A stretch of 51,069 nucleotides of DNA from Candidatus Brocadiaceae bacterium (GTDB lineage: Bacteria; Planctomycetota; Brocadiia; SM23-32): positions 1 to 51,069 of the forward strand of contig PUMJ01000001.1 in NCBI GenBank assembly GCA_003551305.1, written 5' to 3'. A program made the translations under genes and the position numbers. The notes under the pieces are model-generated. The model made no database searches and was not told the origin of the DNA. It was given only the letters and a program-made list of their open reading frames with translations. This document shows, in pieces, positions 18,246-23,707 of this stretch (positions within the stretch are counted from its first letter, which is position 1; every line of letters starts with the position of its first letter).

Positions 18246-18752
18246 TCAGGGGCCGACCCAGCTCACCGTCAGGATTTGGATGGCTGAGTAAGTGCCAGCA
18301 TCCGGGAAAGGCCCATCCAGCAGGGAGGCCCGGACATGGAGGGTGATCTCTACCTCGTCGTCGCCCGGAACGTGCGTTATCCTGACAGGCGGCACCAGGA
18401 AGGAGTCGTGTGGGGCCCATGCTGTGCCGCCGGCGCCGCTGGAGCCGGTGCCCTCCCCGTCGAAGCCCAAGCGATATTCCGTTCGAAGAACGCCGCCTGG
18501 ACCGGCCAGTTGGGCCGCCGCACTGGTGTCCGCTGAGATCTCCGCATCCCCGGTGAGGATCAGGCGGGCGTTGGAATTGCCACGGGAAGTTTCGTCCGTC
18601 CCCGTCAGGGGTGCGAGTGTGACGGGAGAAAAGCCGGAGTCCCAGTACATCGTCTGCGCAAAGAGCGGCCAGGGCGTCAACAGGCCGGCCAGCACCGCCC
18701 CCGCAACGAGAAAACAGCGCATCCACACCGTCCCCCTGCCGCGACCGTTCAC
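18246..18752 (-). CDS. Secreted pilin-like protein, minor paralog lacking the N-terminal extension
   Basis: Signal peptide ending 'LFA|Q'. Aligns by eye with 21503-22039 (PGG.L.TEY.L..DG.G, THV.GD..V..TL.VRAS, DAGTY.A.Q.LT.SW). GTGA overlap with the secretin stop; alternative ATG at 18722. Confidence 0.75.
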   Translation of the reverse strand: MNGRGRGTVWMRCFLVAGAVLAGLLTPWPLFAQTMYWDSGFSPVTLAPLTGTDETSRGNSNARLILTGDAEISADTSAAAQLAGPGGVLRTEYRLGFDGEGTGSSGAGGTAWAPHDSFLVPPVRITHVPGDDEVEITLHVRASLLDGPFPDAGTYSAIQILTVSWVGP

Positions 18753-20182
18753 TGGTCCGCCTCCGGCGCCAAGGGAGCCGCCCTCGAGAACCAGTCTTCG
18801 AGTTCCTCCGGCTCGCCCCCCGGCCCGTGGGCGGCCTCCTTCATGGCCTCGAGTTCGCCGGGAACGTCCAGCATGGTGTGTCGGTCGGACAACGGCGACT
18901 CCCCCTCCTGCATCAGACGGGGGGTGATGAAGATGACGACCTCTTTCTGCACTTCCTCCCGGGAGGTCGAACGGAAAAGAGCGCCCAGCACCGGGATGGC
19001 GCCGAGGATGGGCACGCGCCGGACCTTGTCCCGCTCATGAGTTTCCACCAGCCCGCCGATCACAATGGCGTCTCCTTCCCGGACGCGCACGCGCGTCTTC
19101 GTTTTTCGGCGCTGTATGATGGGCAGGTCGCCCATCTGCTCTCCCCCGTCAGTGCGGTTGAGGTTGCTGGGCTCGCGCGCGACGTCGCTCACCTCGGTCG
19201 TGACGTTGACCGTTATGTCGCCGTCCCTGCCGATGTGGGGGGTCATCTCGAGCAGGACGCCGGATTTGACGACCTGCAGGTCTGTGCGAAGAAACGGCCC
19301 GTTGATATCAGTAACTATAGTGAAATACTGCTCGCGGGTGATGTCAATGACGGCGGTTTCACCGTTGAGCGTAGCGACGCGCGGGCGTGAGCGTATGCCG
19401 GCCACGCCCTTTTCGACCAGCATCCGGAGTGTGAGCAGCAGGGTGCGAAACTCTCGTTCGTCCACGCTGGCATATCGCGCCAGGCCGACAAAGTTCTGGG
19501 CCTGCTCCACGATGCTGAAGACCGTGTCGGGCCCGGTGCGCGTCCAGTCAATGCCCAGCTCCCGGCCGGCGTCGCGGGTCAGTTCGACCACCAGAGCCTC
19601 CAGAACCACCTGGGGGCGCGGAACGTCCAACTGCCCTACAATGTCGAGCACCTGCTCCAGGCGGTCTTGGGGGGCGTATACGAGCACCTCCGTGCTGCGT
19701 CGACCGCTGCTTACGTAAGGCACAAGCTCACGGGGCAGGGAGTTTTGCAGGTGCTGGGCCGTGACGTAGCTGAGGTACACGCGGCGGCTCTGCGCCAGCC
19801 GGGGAAAACTGGGCGAGTCCGGACGGCCGCTGCCGATCAGATAAAGGCCGCTCGACAACTCCCGCACCGAGAGAGCCTGAGCGGCGGTCACCTTCGCGAG
19901 CACATCCTCCAGGGAAGCGTCCTGCGCCTCCAGCGATATGAGCGTATCCTCGACTGCCGGGTCAACCACCACGGCCACGCCCACCTGCATGGCGATGTCG
20001 CGCACAACCTGCCGCAGCGGCACGTCCACCCAGACGTTGTCTATCAGTCCCGCGGGCGGCTGTCCGCCGGCCGCCATCGAGATGGGGCTGACGAGCATGA
20101 GCACCAGAGTGAGAAGGACAAGTGCCCCGATTCGCGCTGACCTCGACTGACGGGGGCCGCTCTTTGGCACGTCCGCATTCAT
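18749..20182 (-). CDS. Secretin (outer-membrane channel, T2SS/T4P secretin family)
   Basis: Signal peptide, N-domains, and secretin-domain motifs 'QVVLEALVVEL', 'PRVATLNGETAVI', 'GVLLEMTPHI', 'IVIGGL', 'VPILGAIPVLGALFRS', 'VIFITPRL'. Confidence 0.93.
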   Translation of the reverse strand: MNADVPKSGPRQSRSARIGALVLLTLVLMLVSPISMAAGGQPPAGLIDNVWVDVPLRQVVRDIAMQVGVAVVVDPAVEDTLISLEAQDASLEDVLAKVTAAQALSVRELSSGLYLIGSGRPDSPSFPRLAQSRRVYLSYVTAQHLQNSLPRELVPYVSSGRRSTEVLVYAPQDRLEQVLDIVGQLDVPRPQVVLEALVVELTRDAGRELGIDWTRTGPDTVFSIVEQAQNFVGLARYASVDEREFRTLLLTLRMLVEKGVAGIRSRPRVATLNGETAVIDITREQYFTIVTDINGPFLRTDLQVVKSGVLLEMTPHIGRDGDITVNVTTEVSDVAREPSNLNRTDGGEQMGDLPIIQRRKTKTRVRVREGDAIVIGGLVETHERDKVRRVPILGAIPVLGALFRSTSREEVQKEVVIFITPRLMQEGESPLSDRHTMLDVPGELEAMKEAAHGPGGEPEELEDWFSRAAPLAPEADQ

Positions 20183-20186
20183 GAAT

Positions 20187-21473
20187 TCACTCCGACACTT
20201 GGAACACGATCCTCACTGTCCGAGACTCGTCTGCAGTGTCCGGCCCCACGGCAGCGGACTCGGCGCTCACCCGGATGACGGCCTCATATTCACCCGGGCT
20301 CGCCCGCGGTGGCACGGCCAGCCGGGCGGACACAGCCCGATGCATTCCGGGCGCCAGGGTGAAGCTCTCGGGCGAGACGGCAAGCCAATCCGCCGCCATC
20401 GCGTCAGGCTGCACCCGGATGCGCATCCTCATTGTCGAACCGGACTCGTTGCTCGTGCCGATGCTGAAAGAGGTGAAGCGACCAGGGTTGAGTCTCATCT
20501 CCACGAGTTCCGGCTTGACGCGCAGGCCGGTCGGTCCTTCCCGTGCGCTCACTTGTTTCCATTCGGCAGCCAGTTTTTCATCTACCGAGAACCGGCTCTG
20601 GGCAAAAGCACGCCGCCCCTCCATGCCCTCAGGCGCCACTGCGAAACGCACAACGTAATCGCCGGGTGGTACGGGTTCGGCGAGAACGCCCTCGAAAATG
20701 CGGCTGTCGCCGGGCAGCACGCGCCGGCGACGCGAATGCAATGGCACCGTTGCCGCCTGGCGGCGCCCGTCAAGGTAGAGGGTCGCCGTCGCATCGCCGG
20801 TGAAGCTGACCAGCCCGTCGTTAAGAACTTCCAGCGCCAGCCGCAGACCGGCTGGCGGGCTGGCGGCTTCCCCTCCGGCTGCGGCATCGAACCGGGGCAG
20901 TTCTACCTGCACCGAGGTGACCTGCGGCCGGGCCAGCCGGGTGTGGCGGGTCACACGCACGAACACCGCCGAAGCGGTTCGCAAAACGACCTGCACCCCG
21001 CCGGCCTGGCGGGGGCCGTCCAGCGTGACCATCACGGCTGCCCAGTAGTCGCCGTCCGCCTCCAGCGGGGGCGAGACGGTTCCCCGCATCGTCCGCTTCT
21101 CTCCCGGCCGGAGACTGACCTCCTCAGCCTCGAGCTGGAGCCAGGGGGTCGCCGAACGCTCGTGCCCCCGCTGCTCGCCAAAGGCAAGCCCCCCTTCCCG
21201 GCAAACGGCGAAGTCTGTGGCTGCTATTCGAACGCGCGCCGTCTGAGTTCGCGTGCCACGCTGCACGTTGTTCAAGGTCAGCTCAAACTCAGCAGTCTGC
21301 CCCGGCCGGACGGTAACCTGCTGCTGCAACGGCGAAACCGCAACACCCGCGAAAGCCGGCCAGGGCGTGACAAAAACCAGCAGAACGAGCGCCAGCAAGG
21401 GCCACGCCGTCGAACCCGCAAGCCTTCGACTGCGGCTGCACCGCGAGCGGATCATGTGTGCGGGGCTCAACAT
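20187..21473 (-). CDS. Exported Ig-like chaperone-type protein (PapD-like/DUF916-like), about three domains
   Basis: Signal peptide 'PAFA|G' followed by 'VAVSP..V.V.PGQ...LTLNN', 'WL......L.PGE', 'GDYWAAVMV', 'N.G', 'VLPG', 'PPGDY'. These patterns are typical of pilus-chaperone-like proteins. Confidence 0.7.
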   Translation of the reverse strand: MLSPAHMIRSRCSRSRRLAGSTAWPLLALVLLVFVTPWPAFAGVAVSPLQQQVTVRPGQTAEFELTLNNVQRGTRTQTARVRIAATDFAVCREGGLAFGEQRGHERSATPWLQLEAEEVSLRPGEKRTMRGTVSPPLEADGDYWAAVMVTLDGPRQAGGVQVVLRTASAVFVRVTRHTRLARPQVTSVQVELPRFDAAAGGEAASPPAGLRLALEVLNDGLVSFTGDATATLYLDGRRQAATVPLHSRRRRVLPGDSRIFEGVLAEPVPPGDYVVRFAVAPEGMEGRRAFAQSRFSVDEKLAAEWKQVSAREGPTGLRVKPELVEMRLNPGRFTSFSIGTSNESGSTMRMRIRVQPDAMAADWLAVSPESFTLAPGMHRAVSARLAVPPRASPGEYEAVIRVSAESAAVGPDTADESRTVRIVFQVSE

Positions 21474-21502
21474 TTGCGGACCCTCCCTTCGTGGCCAACA
21501 GG

Positions 21503-22039
21503 TTATGTGCCCGCCCAGCTGGCGGTCAGCGTCTGTGTGGCGGTGTAGGTGCCGGCATCACCGAGGGTGCCGGCCACGTTGGATGCGCGAACCTGAAGGG
21601 TCACGTCCACGGCGCCGTCACCGGCGACATGCGTAACGGCCGACCCGCCGCTGAGAAATGAGCTATAGACCGTGTAGGCCACGTCAGCGCCACCAGTGGC
21701 GCTGTCACCGTCGCCGTCGTACTTCAGCCCGTACTCGGTGTAAAGCGTCACTCCGCCGGGCTCGGCCAGTTCAGCCGTGTCGGAATTGTTGGCTGTGATG
21801 GTGACGTCACCGTTGGTAAACAGGGTCACCGTCGAACTGCCGCTCACCACATCTGCCTGGGCAGTGATGGTGCCCAGGTCTATGGCGGAGAAATTGCTCT
21901 CCCACTCCATGATCTCGGCGACAGCGACCTCGATGTTGCAGGTGGCTGAGTCGTCCGAGGGTTGGGCGCTCGCCACGTGAGCAACGCCGACGATGCACAC
22001 GACAAGAGTGACGGTGAGACCGACACGTGAGACGGACAT
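21503..22039 (-). CDS. Secreted pilin-like protein (putative major subunit)
   Basis: Sec signal 'ASA|Q', alternating-hydrophobic N-terminal segment 'ATCNIEVAVAEI', beta-rich S/T/G/A composition, C-terminal 'AGTYTATQTLTASW' resembling the GxY last strand of Ig-fold pilins. RBS GAAGGGAG. Confidence 0.75.
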   Translation of the reverse strand: MSVSRVGLTVTLVVCIVGVAHVASAQPSDDSATCNIEVAVAEIMEWESNFSAIDLGTITAQADVVSGSSTVTLFTNGDVTITANNSDTAELAEPGGVTLYTEYGLKYDGDGDSATGGADVAYTVYSSFLSGGSAVTHVAGDGAVDVTLQVRASNVAGTLGDAGTYTATQTLTASWAGT

Positions 22040-22181
22040 GACTGACTCCCTTCACAGCTATGGTTATGCGAGGGCGTGCATCAACCCCGCGCACTGTCCT
22101 ATGGGCGGACCGCGTGTTTTGGGCCGCAAACCGAAAAGAACTGACCCGGGCGGTCCGAATCAACCGACGTGTGCAAGCTGA

Positions 22182-22197
22182 AGCAAGAGCCATGCCG
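22182..22197 (-). promoter_or_regulatory. Sigma54 (-24/-12) promoter of the pilin-chaperone-secretin operon
   Basis: Minus strand CGGCATGgctcTTGCT, the same CGGCATG-N4-TTGC core as 11767-11782, about 140 nt upstream of the first ATG. Confidence 0.7.
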
Positions 22198-22684
22198 CAG
22201 CAAGATCTTTATGTCAGGATATGGTTCGGCCGGACGGATGCCGCGAATTACCGGTGGGCTTCTCCGGGCGTTATTCGGGCTCTTGAGGCCTTTTCAGCGC
22301 CCTTTCGGCCCGGCGGCGAAAGCATTTGCTGGGGGTAGATGCACAAGAAAGACAACCGCCGGGAAAGCGCAAGATCAGGGTGCGCCCAATTATGCGACAC
22401 CCCGGATGGTTACGTCATCGAGGCTGCCAATCCCCGGTCGTGGTGTCCAAACAAGCCAGCCTTGCCCGGCGCACAGAGGACACGAAGCTCGTGCGTAGTG
22501 ACACAGGTGAGGAGGGTCACGACCGCCCGGTACCTACCCGGAAGATGGGGCCGGCACGGGAAGCAGGGAGGCGTCCCGCGGGCGCGGGGTGCCTGGGGGC
22601 GCCGGATGAACCGGGAGGCGGCCGCGGAGGCATAGTCCGGAACCGCCGAGGCGGGAAGATGCCGGGATGATGGCAACGGCCAGC

Positions 22685-22903
22685 TCAATCGCTGGAAAGC
22701 GACTCGAGCCGCTGCCGCTCCTGCATGATCTCCAGCATCACTGCGTTCTGCAGGTAGATGCCGACCAGTGCATTGGATATCGCCTGCAGATAGCGTATCT
22801 GCCGCGTTTCGTGCTCTTCGCGGAATTCGGCGTCAGACATGAATCCACGGGCGTTCTCAAGCCTTTGATAGGCTTCTGCCAGTCGTTCGTCTTGTTCTGC
22901 CAT
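22685..22903 (-). CDS. Small helical hypothetical protein (72 aa)
   Basis: ATG-started ORF with protein-like composition, 33 nt downstream of the phosphoesterase on the same strand. Confidence 0.6.
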   Translation of the reverse strand: MAEQDERLAEAYQRLENARGFMSDAEFREEHETRQIRYLQAISNALVGIYLQNAVMLEIMQERQRLESLSSD

Positions 22904-22936
22904 TGTCTCTCGCTCGGCTCCCGGGATGAAAAGGGG

Positions 22937-23707
22937 CTACAACCCGACAGTGAGCCGCTCGCCCAGCGTGTCGGGTAGCTCGGGTTCGTCTTTGATCTTC
23001 TGAATCGTCGTGCCGATATCATACGGGACGCGCAGGATGCTCGCCACTTTGCTGACGATACGAAAACTGAGATCCTCATCCTGGATATACCTGAACTTGA
23101 ACCTGACCAAATCAAGGATGGCATAACTTGCCATCCAGTTCCTGTCCCGCGGCTGGCCGACACTGCCGGGGTTCATCACGCGCGCCGTGCGCATCGGCAA
23201 ATGGCTGTGGCCAACGACCAGCATACGGCCGCCGACCTGCTCTGTCAGGGCGGCCGTCGCCTGGCCCGGCAACACATAATCGTTGAGCATCTGCTCGGGC
23301 GTGCCGGGGCAGCCGTGGACGATCGTCAGGCCCTCGACTTCCAGCTTCAGGGGCAGTTCCCGCAGCCACTGCTTGTTTTGGCCGGTCAGAACCCGGTTGG
23401 TCCAGCGGGATGATGCCTTGGCCACGGTATTTTTCCCTTCGAAAATGCGCCGGCACAACTCCCGCTGCTCATCGGGGAACTGCTCATCGCCCGAGTCCAG
23501 GCGGTCGATGTTGGCGCAGGCGAAGTCGTGATTGCCCATAACGGCGGGCACCCCCCGGCTGCGTAGCAACTCACAGCACTCATTGGGATTCGGCCCGTAG
23601 CCGACCACGTCCCCGGCGCAATAGACGTCACAGTCCGAATCCATGTGCTTGAACACCGCCTGCAGGGCTTCGAGGTTTCCGTGGATATCGGATATGATCG
23701 CTATCAT
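22937..23707 (-). CDS. Metallophosphoesterase (calcineurin-like)
   Basis: 'SDIHGN', 'GDVVGYGP', 'GNHD', 'VHG', 'GHSH', 'NPGSVGQPRD'. Confidence 0.92.
   Translation of the reverse strand: MIAIISDIHGNLEALQAVFKHMDSDCDVYCAGDVVGYGPNPNECCELLRSRGVPAVMGNHDFACANIDRLDSGDEQFPDEQRELCRRIFEGKNTVAKASSRWTNRVLTGQNKQWLRELPLKLEVEGLTIVHGCPGTPEQMLNDYVLPGQATAALTEQVGGRMLVVGHSHLPMRTARVMNPGSVGQPRDRNWMASYAILDLVRFKFRYIQDEDLSFRIVSKVASILRVPYDIGTTIQKIKDEPELPDTLGERLTVGL

Follow-up and report, generated by a model that had tools for sequence, protein, structure and literature searches.

A Putative Donor-Strand Pilus Operon with a Chaperone-Fold Protein and a Secretin in a Planctomycete

Donor-strand exchange is known from the Pseudomonadota, where it works together with an usher. 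In the chaperone-usher mechanism the fibre is extended at its base, and a subunit that offers a groove and has no donor strand can take only the distal position. Donor-strand exchange with a membrane chaperone and a sortase has been described in the Bacillota, in a 2026 preprint (10.64898/2026.10.17.759780). The subject here is a different gene set, found in a Candidatus Brocadiaceae bacterium of the phylum Planctomycetota (assembly GCA_003551305.1, contig PUMJ01000001.1). In the list of open reading frames (ORFs), four closely packed minus-strand genes, called A, B, C and D, span positions 18246-22039 of the window, that is, the whole stretch of 51,069 nucleotides that was analysed. They encode a secreted protein with an N-terminal extension (A), a chaperone-fold protein (B), a small secretin (C) and a paralog of A without the extension (D). 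The operon probably encodes a donor-strand pilus that leaves through the secretin, with A as its shaft, D as its tip, B as its chaperone and C as its exit. The original prediction, made from the sequence of the window, was concerned with A and D; the intervening chaperone-fold protein and secretin, which it overlooked, are the more unusual part.

At the level of fold, A and D are like the pilins of chaperone-usher pili (class 5 CFA/I, archaic Csu/CupE, type 1 and P) in being immunoglobulin (Ig)-fold domains minus the last strand. The polymerising subunits of those pili carry, like A, an N-terminal extension with alternating small or hydrophobic residues, and their tip subunit, like D, lacks it and sometimes bears a payload. 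Their donor strand runs antiparallel to the last strand, as that of A does in the model of A inserted into D, and B shares the two-domain PapD-like fold of their chaperones. The differences are as clear as the likenesses. Unlike the chaperone-usher pili of the Pseudomonadota, this operon has a secretin and no usher and belongs to a planctomycete, and B has a third domain, which is PapD/MSP-like. There is no sequence match to PDB pilins or chaperones, and the pilin families PF00419 and PF05229 and the chaperone families PF00345 and PF02753 are unlisted for A, B, D or their orthologs; for A, neither a Pfam nor an NCBIfam family was found. The usher family PF00577 has no match in the source genome (3.89 Mb, 90.5% complete). 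The operon would work like a chaperone-usher pilus, yet it stands outside that family because no usher was found and the tests of sequence family fail.

The WxL (Elr) pilus of the Bacillota offers another comparison. Its chaperone, WxLIP/ElrE, is the best structural match of B, and PF06030 (DUF916, WxLIP_PGBD) is found in 17 of 24 B orthologs (best E 4.1e-7). Both systems include large proteins whose strand-accepting pilin domain is joined to a variable payload, usually on its N-terminal side, and in both a long chaperone hairpin is proposed to complement the groove. In contrast to the WxL pilus, the 52 members of the pilin family do not match the WxL family at E<=0.1, and the listed fold matches of A are chaperone-usher pilins, with no WxL chain among them (which does not by itself exclude a relationship). 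Two Trp residues of A, W46 and W175, are invariant, and neither lies in a W-x-L motif. B lacks the C-terminal membrane helix of WxLIP, there is no LPxTG subunit or sortase (no LPxTG motif can be read in A or D), and the cell is a diderm with a secretin in the operon. In the preprint, which sampled 4,698 genera with a single proteome per genus, the WxL system is reported from the Bacillota only (10.64898/2026.10.17.759780).

Secretin-dependent filaments (type IV pili, Tad pili, type II pseudopili and phage pIV) likewise have a secretin in the filament operon. However, the subunits here are Sec-type beta-sandwich proteins rather than the type IV pilins of the type IV, Tad and type II systems, and the locus and its conserved flanks have no ATPase, platform protein or prepilin peptidase. 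Fibres are also formed by strand complementation in type V pili, TasA, archaeal bundling pili, cannulae and Ena, none of which shares the dedicated chaperone-fold protein of this locus. CanA, TasA and the bundling pili stand lower in the fold lists for A (Z 5.7-7.8). A type V pilus was ruled out, since A and D have ordinary signal peptides without the lipoprotein signal of type V precursors. An assignment to Ena was not adopted either: the match of PF13157 reaches only E 0.12 (12.8 bits, the cut-off being 22), the extension has one conserved Cys where Ena subunits, which are jellyrolls, have a Cys-rich N-terminal connector, and the fold matches listed for A include no Ena structure. In the literature searched, supplementary files being outside the search, no publication was found that describes a secretin-linked donor-strand system, nor was one found that links the Planctomycetota with a donor strand.

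The pilin pair and its extension

A and D are paralogs, with 61 of 139 residues identical (44%; BLASTP, E 6e-34, A 40-178 against D 31-168), and both finish on the common end DAGTYxAxQxLTxSW, as the original prediction had read them. Signal-peptide cleavage was placed by eye with the -3/-1 rule, at ...VASA/QPSDD in A and at ...PLFA/QTMYW in D, and in the alignment of relatives the A.A/QP motif is conserved in the long, extension-bearing class. Mature A then has 17 residues (QPSDDSATCNIEVAVAE) ahead of IMEW, and mature D has a single Q ahead of TMYW. The extension that had been predicted is present, in A only, and its length of about 16 residues has to be corrected to 17. No alternative start or cleavage was found that would give D an equivalent segment. 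D has no start further upstream, GTG 18752 being the first ATG, GTG or TTG past the in-frame stop, and the alternative start at ATG 18722 shortens D rather than lengthening it. In the source genome A and D are the sole two copies.

The extension has a pattern that would suit a donor strand. Over 72 distinct sequences, 68-72 have a small or hydrophobic residue at each of the odd positions 7-15: A7 is kept in 68, Cys9 (window 21938-21940) in 59 and otherwise mostly replaced by Ala (12), while I/V11, V/C/A/I13 and V15 hold in all 72.

The asymmetry between the two genes is conserved beyond the window. A search with A returned 60 proteins, which split into a long and a short class, and those that are named are all hypothetical proteins of Planctomycetota metagenome-assembled genomes (MAGs). 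A scan of one genome per species found 33 loci, all of them in Planctomycetota MAGs, with the full A-B-C-D order in 24 and an interruption by contig ends in 8. The extension is present in all 26 first genes with an intact N-terminus and absent from the gene directly 3' of C in all 28 loci, as the shaft-and-tip prediction requires of homologous loci. Between the core of the signal peptide and the conserved Trp there are 20-29 residues in 25 of the 26 first genes (locus L024 was judged by eye) and 0-14 in 27 of the 28 genes after C; in L033, the post-C gene has a 552-residue payload domain before its pilin domain. An extra extension-bearing gene lies further downstream in L014. Among 401 sampled genomes of the phylum, five have a match, and the four besides the source genome make up one distant family. 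In these, one or two long genes and one short gene adjoin B and C in the order long(-long)-short-B-C, so the pair is kept and the short gene relocated. The asymmetry is not due to chance, as each homologous locus that is informative shows it and a distant sister family shows it too.

A third class of paralog lies upstream of A and is transcribed divergently from it in 15 of the 33 loci (e.g., L016:6074-6568(-), L025:6058-6567(-) and L039:6977-7504(+)). Two Cys occur in its extension (SATCxISCTVA[DE]), and the last strand (TLTVCWKS) has one more. The class might serve as an adaptor or terminator, or be a subunit locked by disulfides. The window's genome does not have it; its site in other loci corresponds to 22040-22936 upstream of A, where no gene remnant was found.

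Larger relatives bear on the proposed place of D in the fibre. An exhaustive HMMER profile search among 1.84 billion sequences gave 138 representatives at E<=0.001; its profile was built from D-type sequences and may favour the short class, and many long-class proteins were returned too. Every real fusion that was inspected has its payload on an extension-less domain. The payload is N-terminal in representatives P0065, P0066, P0068, P0072 and P0075, in the related pair P0061 and P0062, and in P0100, where it is a CBM6 domain (5.2e-10). It is C-terminal in P0074 (two fn3 domains and PA14, 4.1e-27) and in P0079 / L013 (fn3). The tally leaves out P0136, P0170, P0182 and P0195. A word-indexed search for longer relatives of D had given P0062 alone, and the HMMER search gave more fused forms. 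These adhesin-like payload fusions give independent support to D as the tip, and they agree with the original assignment of shaft and tip.

Two further candidates were set aside as likely miscalled ORFs: P0102, with about 100 residues ahead of the signal peptide, and P0097, with a low-complexity tail, whose copy in L014 has no Pfam match. A cluster of the ESM atlas with SCPU on 14% of its members is a lead only. P0187 (341 residues), from a distant subfamily, has tandem pilin domains, the first extension-less and the second behind a linker that resembles the extension (YITAYVDSFAQW). Such a protein could be a natural fusion that complements itself.

The fold of A and the strand model

The AlphaFold2 (AF2) model of mature A, from 52 aligned sequences, has a predicted local distance difference test score (pLDDT) of 92.4 and a predicted template modelling score (pTM) of 0.84. 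In this monomer, residues 1-17 are strandless, with pLDDT 65-77, and the first strand is at 19-21; the extension was not seen to fold back into its own domain, one of the outcomes that the original prediction had named as refuting it. Fold searches with Foldseek and two VIA-align runs matched A over 16-153, which is the core without the extension. The top matches are chaperone-usher pilins or pilin domains, which make up 48 of the best 50 chains listed, and 43 of 999 re-aligned PDB chains reach Z>=8. The pilin matches run from Z 8 to 9.6, with a root-mean-square deviation (rmsd) of 2.3-3.2 over 105-120 residues. They include the pilin domains of CfaE (6k73_C, Z 9.6, rmsd 3.0 over 120) and PapG (Z 9.3-9.6), as well as CfaB (3f85, Z 9.4-9.5), FimG (9.3) and CsuA/B (7zl4, 9.1-9.2).

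The complex was modelled as D with A in two copies, from separate alignments for each chain, in three runs and with three controls. The interaction score ipSAE was 0.91 in all three runs, compared to 0.01 for the best control, with at least 95% of contacts in agreement between runs and a partner pLDDT of at least 94. In the model, A 1-18 contacts D 115-133 and D 7-20. The pairs D131-A5, 129-7, 127-9, 125-11 and 123-13 set A 5-15 antiparallel to the last, C-terminal strand of D (120-133) and beside its first strand, and I11 and V13 of A touch the invariant L50. As modelled, the extension of A on D has the topology of donor-strand exchange, in agreement with the original prediction for this pair.

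The step from this pair to a fibre concerns the groove of A. Among the interface residues of D, 28 of 53 are identical in A, compared to 29 of 83 residues elsewhere, so the groove of A should accept the same strand, and A would then polymerise with A into a shaft. One could instead consider A and D a discrete heterodimer, or a short complex, held by one donated strand: a two-part adhesin, secreted or on the surface, that is released through the secretin and forms no fibre. The only interface reported is that of A into D, the binding payloads sit on D-type domains, and the window encodes one A and one D, all of which fit such an adhesin. However, an A with a donor extension and with a groove lining conserved with D would be expected to add to itself, some loci have two long genes in tandem, and the known proteins of the same fold and layout found by the fold search all polymerise. 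The heterodimer is therefore unlikely, though it is the strongest of the alternatives to a pilus.

The chaperone-fold protein and the secretin

The AF2 model of B, from 24 sequences (pLDDT 88.2, pTM 0.85), has three beta-sandwich domains, at 1-132, 141-255 and 275-384. Domains 1-2 have a chaperone fold. Their best match is WxLIP of Enterococcus faecium (9i1y_A, Z 14.0, 247 residues aligned), and nine chaperone-usher chaperones match at Z 9.8-12.2: CfaA (12.2), YadV (11.3), FimC (11.0), SafB (10.9), CsuC (10.9), EcpB (10.8), PapD (10.1), CupB2 and FaeE. Domain 3 matches PapD-like/MSP domains. Besides PF06030, PF11797 (DUF3324) is found in 3 of the 24 orthologs. The C-terminus of B, RTVRIVFQVSE, has no hydrophobic tail, and a short helix at 257-267 is the only one in the model.

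Conservation in B is highest in a long hairpin with strands E99-115 and E118-132, in which G99, D100, Y101, W102, A103, T124 and F129 are invariant; its motifs are GDYWA (invariant) and LRTASxVFV. The hairpin of WxLIP is reported to be lent to WxL domains (PMC10599100; 10.64898/2026.10.17.759780). By analogy, the hairpin of B appears to be the counterpart of the WxLIP DUF916 hairpin and may complement the pilins in a similar way, which would make B a periplasmic chaperone. Most B orthologs share two Cys, one in a PC.V motif of domain 1 and one in domain 3; neither is present in the B of the window or in its nearest relative. A distant genome has another gene similar to B, with weaker matches (E 7e-9 and 5e-8), beside another secretin at G196:C78:1155-4025, which hints at further chaperone-secretin modules.

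Gene C matches PF00263 at 1.9e-40 over residues 255-424. Its layout is minimal, with an N0-like domain, one N domain and the secretin domain. It matches GspD (9k8v_A, 6.1e-25), PilQ and RcpA across the secretin domain only, and it scores under every NCBIfam subfamily cut-off. When the flanking ORFs of all 33 loci were clustered, neither an ATPase nor a platform gene proved to be conserved. Because there is no usher match in the genome, no T2SSE ATPase match on the contig and no ATPase conserved in the flanks, the conserved unit is a pilin-chaperone-secretin module, and its synteny suggests that the fibre passes through C.

C might, on the other hand, serve a machine encoded elsewhere, either for type II secretion or for a type IV pilus, with A, B and D as its cargo or accessory Ig-like proteins and the extension as a linker or secretion signal. 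The source genome would allow it, as it has 13 T2SSE-type ATPase matches and six secretin matches, and the secretin domain of C is similar to those of GspD and PilQ. None of the 13 ATPase matches is on this contig, however, and at least two of the other secretin matches (contigs C206 and C226) share their contigs with ATPase matches. A-B-C-D travels as a unit across orders of the Planctomycetota without an ATPase or platform gene, and a linker or signal would leave the alternating, conserved extension and its modelled insertion unexplained. This explanation is improbable, a shade more so than the heterodimer.

The weakest explanation is that the extension complements the groove of A in cis or is removed, so that A and D are monomeric beta-sandwich proteins of the periplasm or secreted ones (e.g., carbohydrate binders), with B as an Ig-repeat protein unrelated to them; the strongest Pfam matches of B are indeed generic (NPCBM_assoc and fn3_5), 4 of the 52 pilins match CBM_6 weakly (best E 0.022), and a monomer model cannot rule out complementation in cis, but residues 1-17 have no strand in that model, an extension-less paralog would have no reason to be kept in every locus, and domains 1-2 of B jointly match chaperones and not merely single Ig domains, all of which makes it very improbable.

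The proposed assembly route and the layout of the locus

In the proposed route for the pilus, A and D would be exported by Sec and cleaved by signal peptidase, each then being an Ig-like pilin fold minus its last strand. In the periplasm the soluble protein B, whose fold is of the PapD/WxLIP type, would hold each subunit by a strand from its long conserved hairpin. D, which has no extension and could only accept a strand, would be incorporated first and end at the distal tip, where in some lineages it would present lectin-like domains. The extension of A, with A7-C9-I11-V13-V15 facing inward, would insert into D, antiparallel to its last strand, and more copies of A would insert likewise into A. 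The fibre would grow at its base and cross the outer membrane via the C secretin; an usher would not be required, and the locus encodes no ATPase. Confidence is higher in the donation of a strand by A to D than in the full mechanism, and lower in the secretin as the conduit.

A bolder proposal, which is held tentatively and falls a little short of being probable, is that of a "chaperone-secretin" pathway that has not been described before. A periplasmic chaperone distantly related to the WxLIP of Gram-positive bacteria would prime Ig-fold subunits, and donor-strand exchange alone would drive the fibre out through a minimal secretin, with neither usher nor ATPase. Domain 3 of B would dock on the N0 domain of the secretin, and WxL and chaperone-usher pili would be linked in evolution.

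Several points weigh against a donor-strand pilus with a secretin exit. The Z-scores of A (9-9.6) exceed the typical best background (7-8) by a small margin, PDB sequences gave no useful match to profiles of A/D and of B or to P0061, and the window's own B reaches PF06030 at E 0.11 only. As for the complex model, the ipSAE mark is reached by 58 of 80 solved complexes and by 2 of 110 mismatched pairs, counts that are approximate for a three-chain job with own alignments. Unrelated proteins were used as controls, in place of an A whose extension had been scrambled, and part of the model's confidence may come from recall of solved chaperone-usher donor-strand complexes. Because the model reported the A-into-D interface only, polymerisation of A with A is inferred from the conservation of the groove. 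Mature A and D of the window contain no second cysteine with which Cys9 could pair, and the conservation of Cys9 is not accounted for by plain strand exchange. All loci come from MAGs of uncultured hosts. Locus L021 (5242-7417) has C and D with a 5'-truncated divergent paralog abutting them and lacks A and B, which looks like a deletion. Finally, no precedent was found in the literature for a donor-strand fibre that leaves through a secretin unaided by an ATPase of the inner membrane.

The features of the locus are collected in Table 1. The spacing of A and B is only 29 nucleotides, which leaves no space for a terminator behind A. The original prediction also held that the distal gene is translationally coupled; in the window the overlap of C and D bears this out, but it does not extend to all loci, the C-D gap in L011 being 80 nucleotides. 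A scan for promoters and terminators gave consensus matches only. Upstream of A lies about 0.9 kb of non-coding DNA (22040-22936), and an Rfam search of 21900-23100 gave zero matches; a 72-residue ORF can be read within this DNA at 22903..22685 (-). The operon is flanked by housekeeping genes, for a metallophosphoesterase and for a glutamate dehydrogenase, and G+C is uniform over the region. Elsewhere, 11 of the 33 loci have a coiled-coil protein of about 200-500 residues after D, with weak coiled-coil Pfam matches (e.g., L033:4127-5644(+) and L016:11269-12630(+)), and six loci have a nearby protein of up to 1188 residues without a Pfam match; both are absent from the window.

Table 1. Coordinates of the A-B-C-D operon and its features in the window
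Feature	Position	Strand	Description
Gene A	22039..21503	-	178 residues, mature 153; extension-bearing pilin, proposed polymerising shaft subunit
Signal peptide of A	21965..22039	-	Residues 1-25, cut ASA/Q; sequence reading
N-terminal extension of mature A	21914..21964	-	Q1-E17; proposed donor strand with inward-facing A7, C9, I11, V13 and V15
Gene B	21473..20187	-	428 residues, mature 386; secreted three-domain beta-sandwich protein, proposed periplasmic chaperone
Long beta-hairpin of B, domain 1	20943..21059	-	Mature residues 97-135 (ADGDYWAA...LRTASAVFVRVTRH); candidate complementing strand
Gene C	20182..18749	-	477 residues; small secretin, proposed outer-membrane exit
GTGA overlap	18749..18752	-	C stop codon and D start codon, ORFs share 4 nucleotides; sequence reading
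Gene D	18752..18246	-	168 residues, mature 136 from 18656; extension-less pilin paralog, proposed distal tip or cap

The family is small, and since its pilins have no Pfam model, it escapes current annotation. If the proposed pilus is real, the operon would be a third component set for donor-strand exchange, with a secretin as the exit, and the core of chaperone and pilin would be older and more portable than its outer-membrane partner. Secretins would gain a new class of substrate, and the Planctomycetota would have their first candidate gene set for fibres that are not of type IV.

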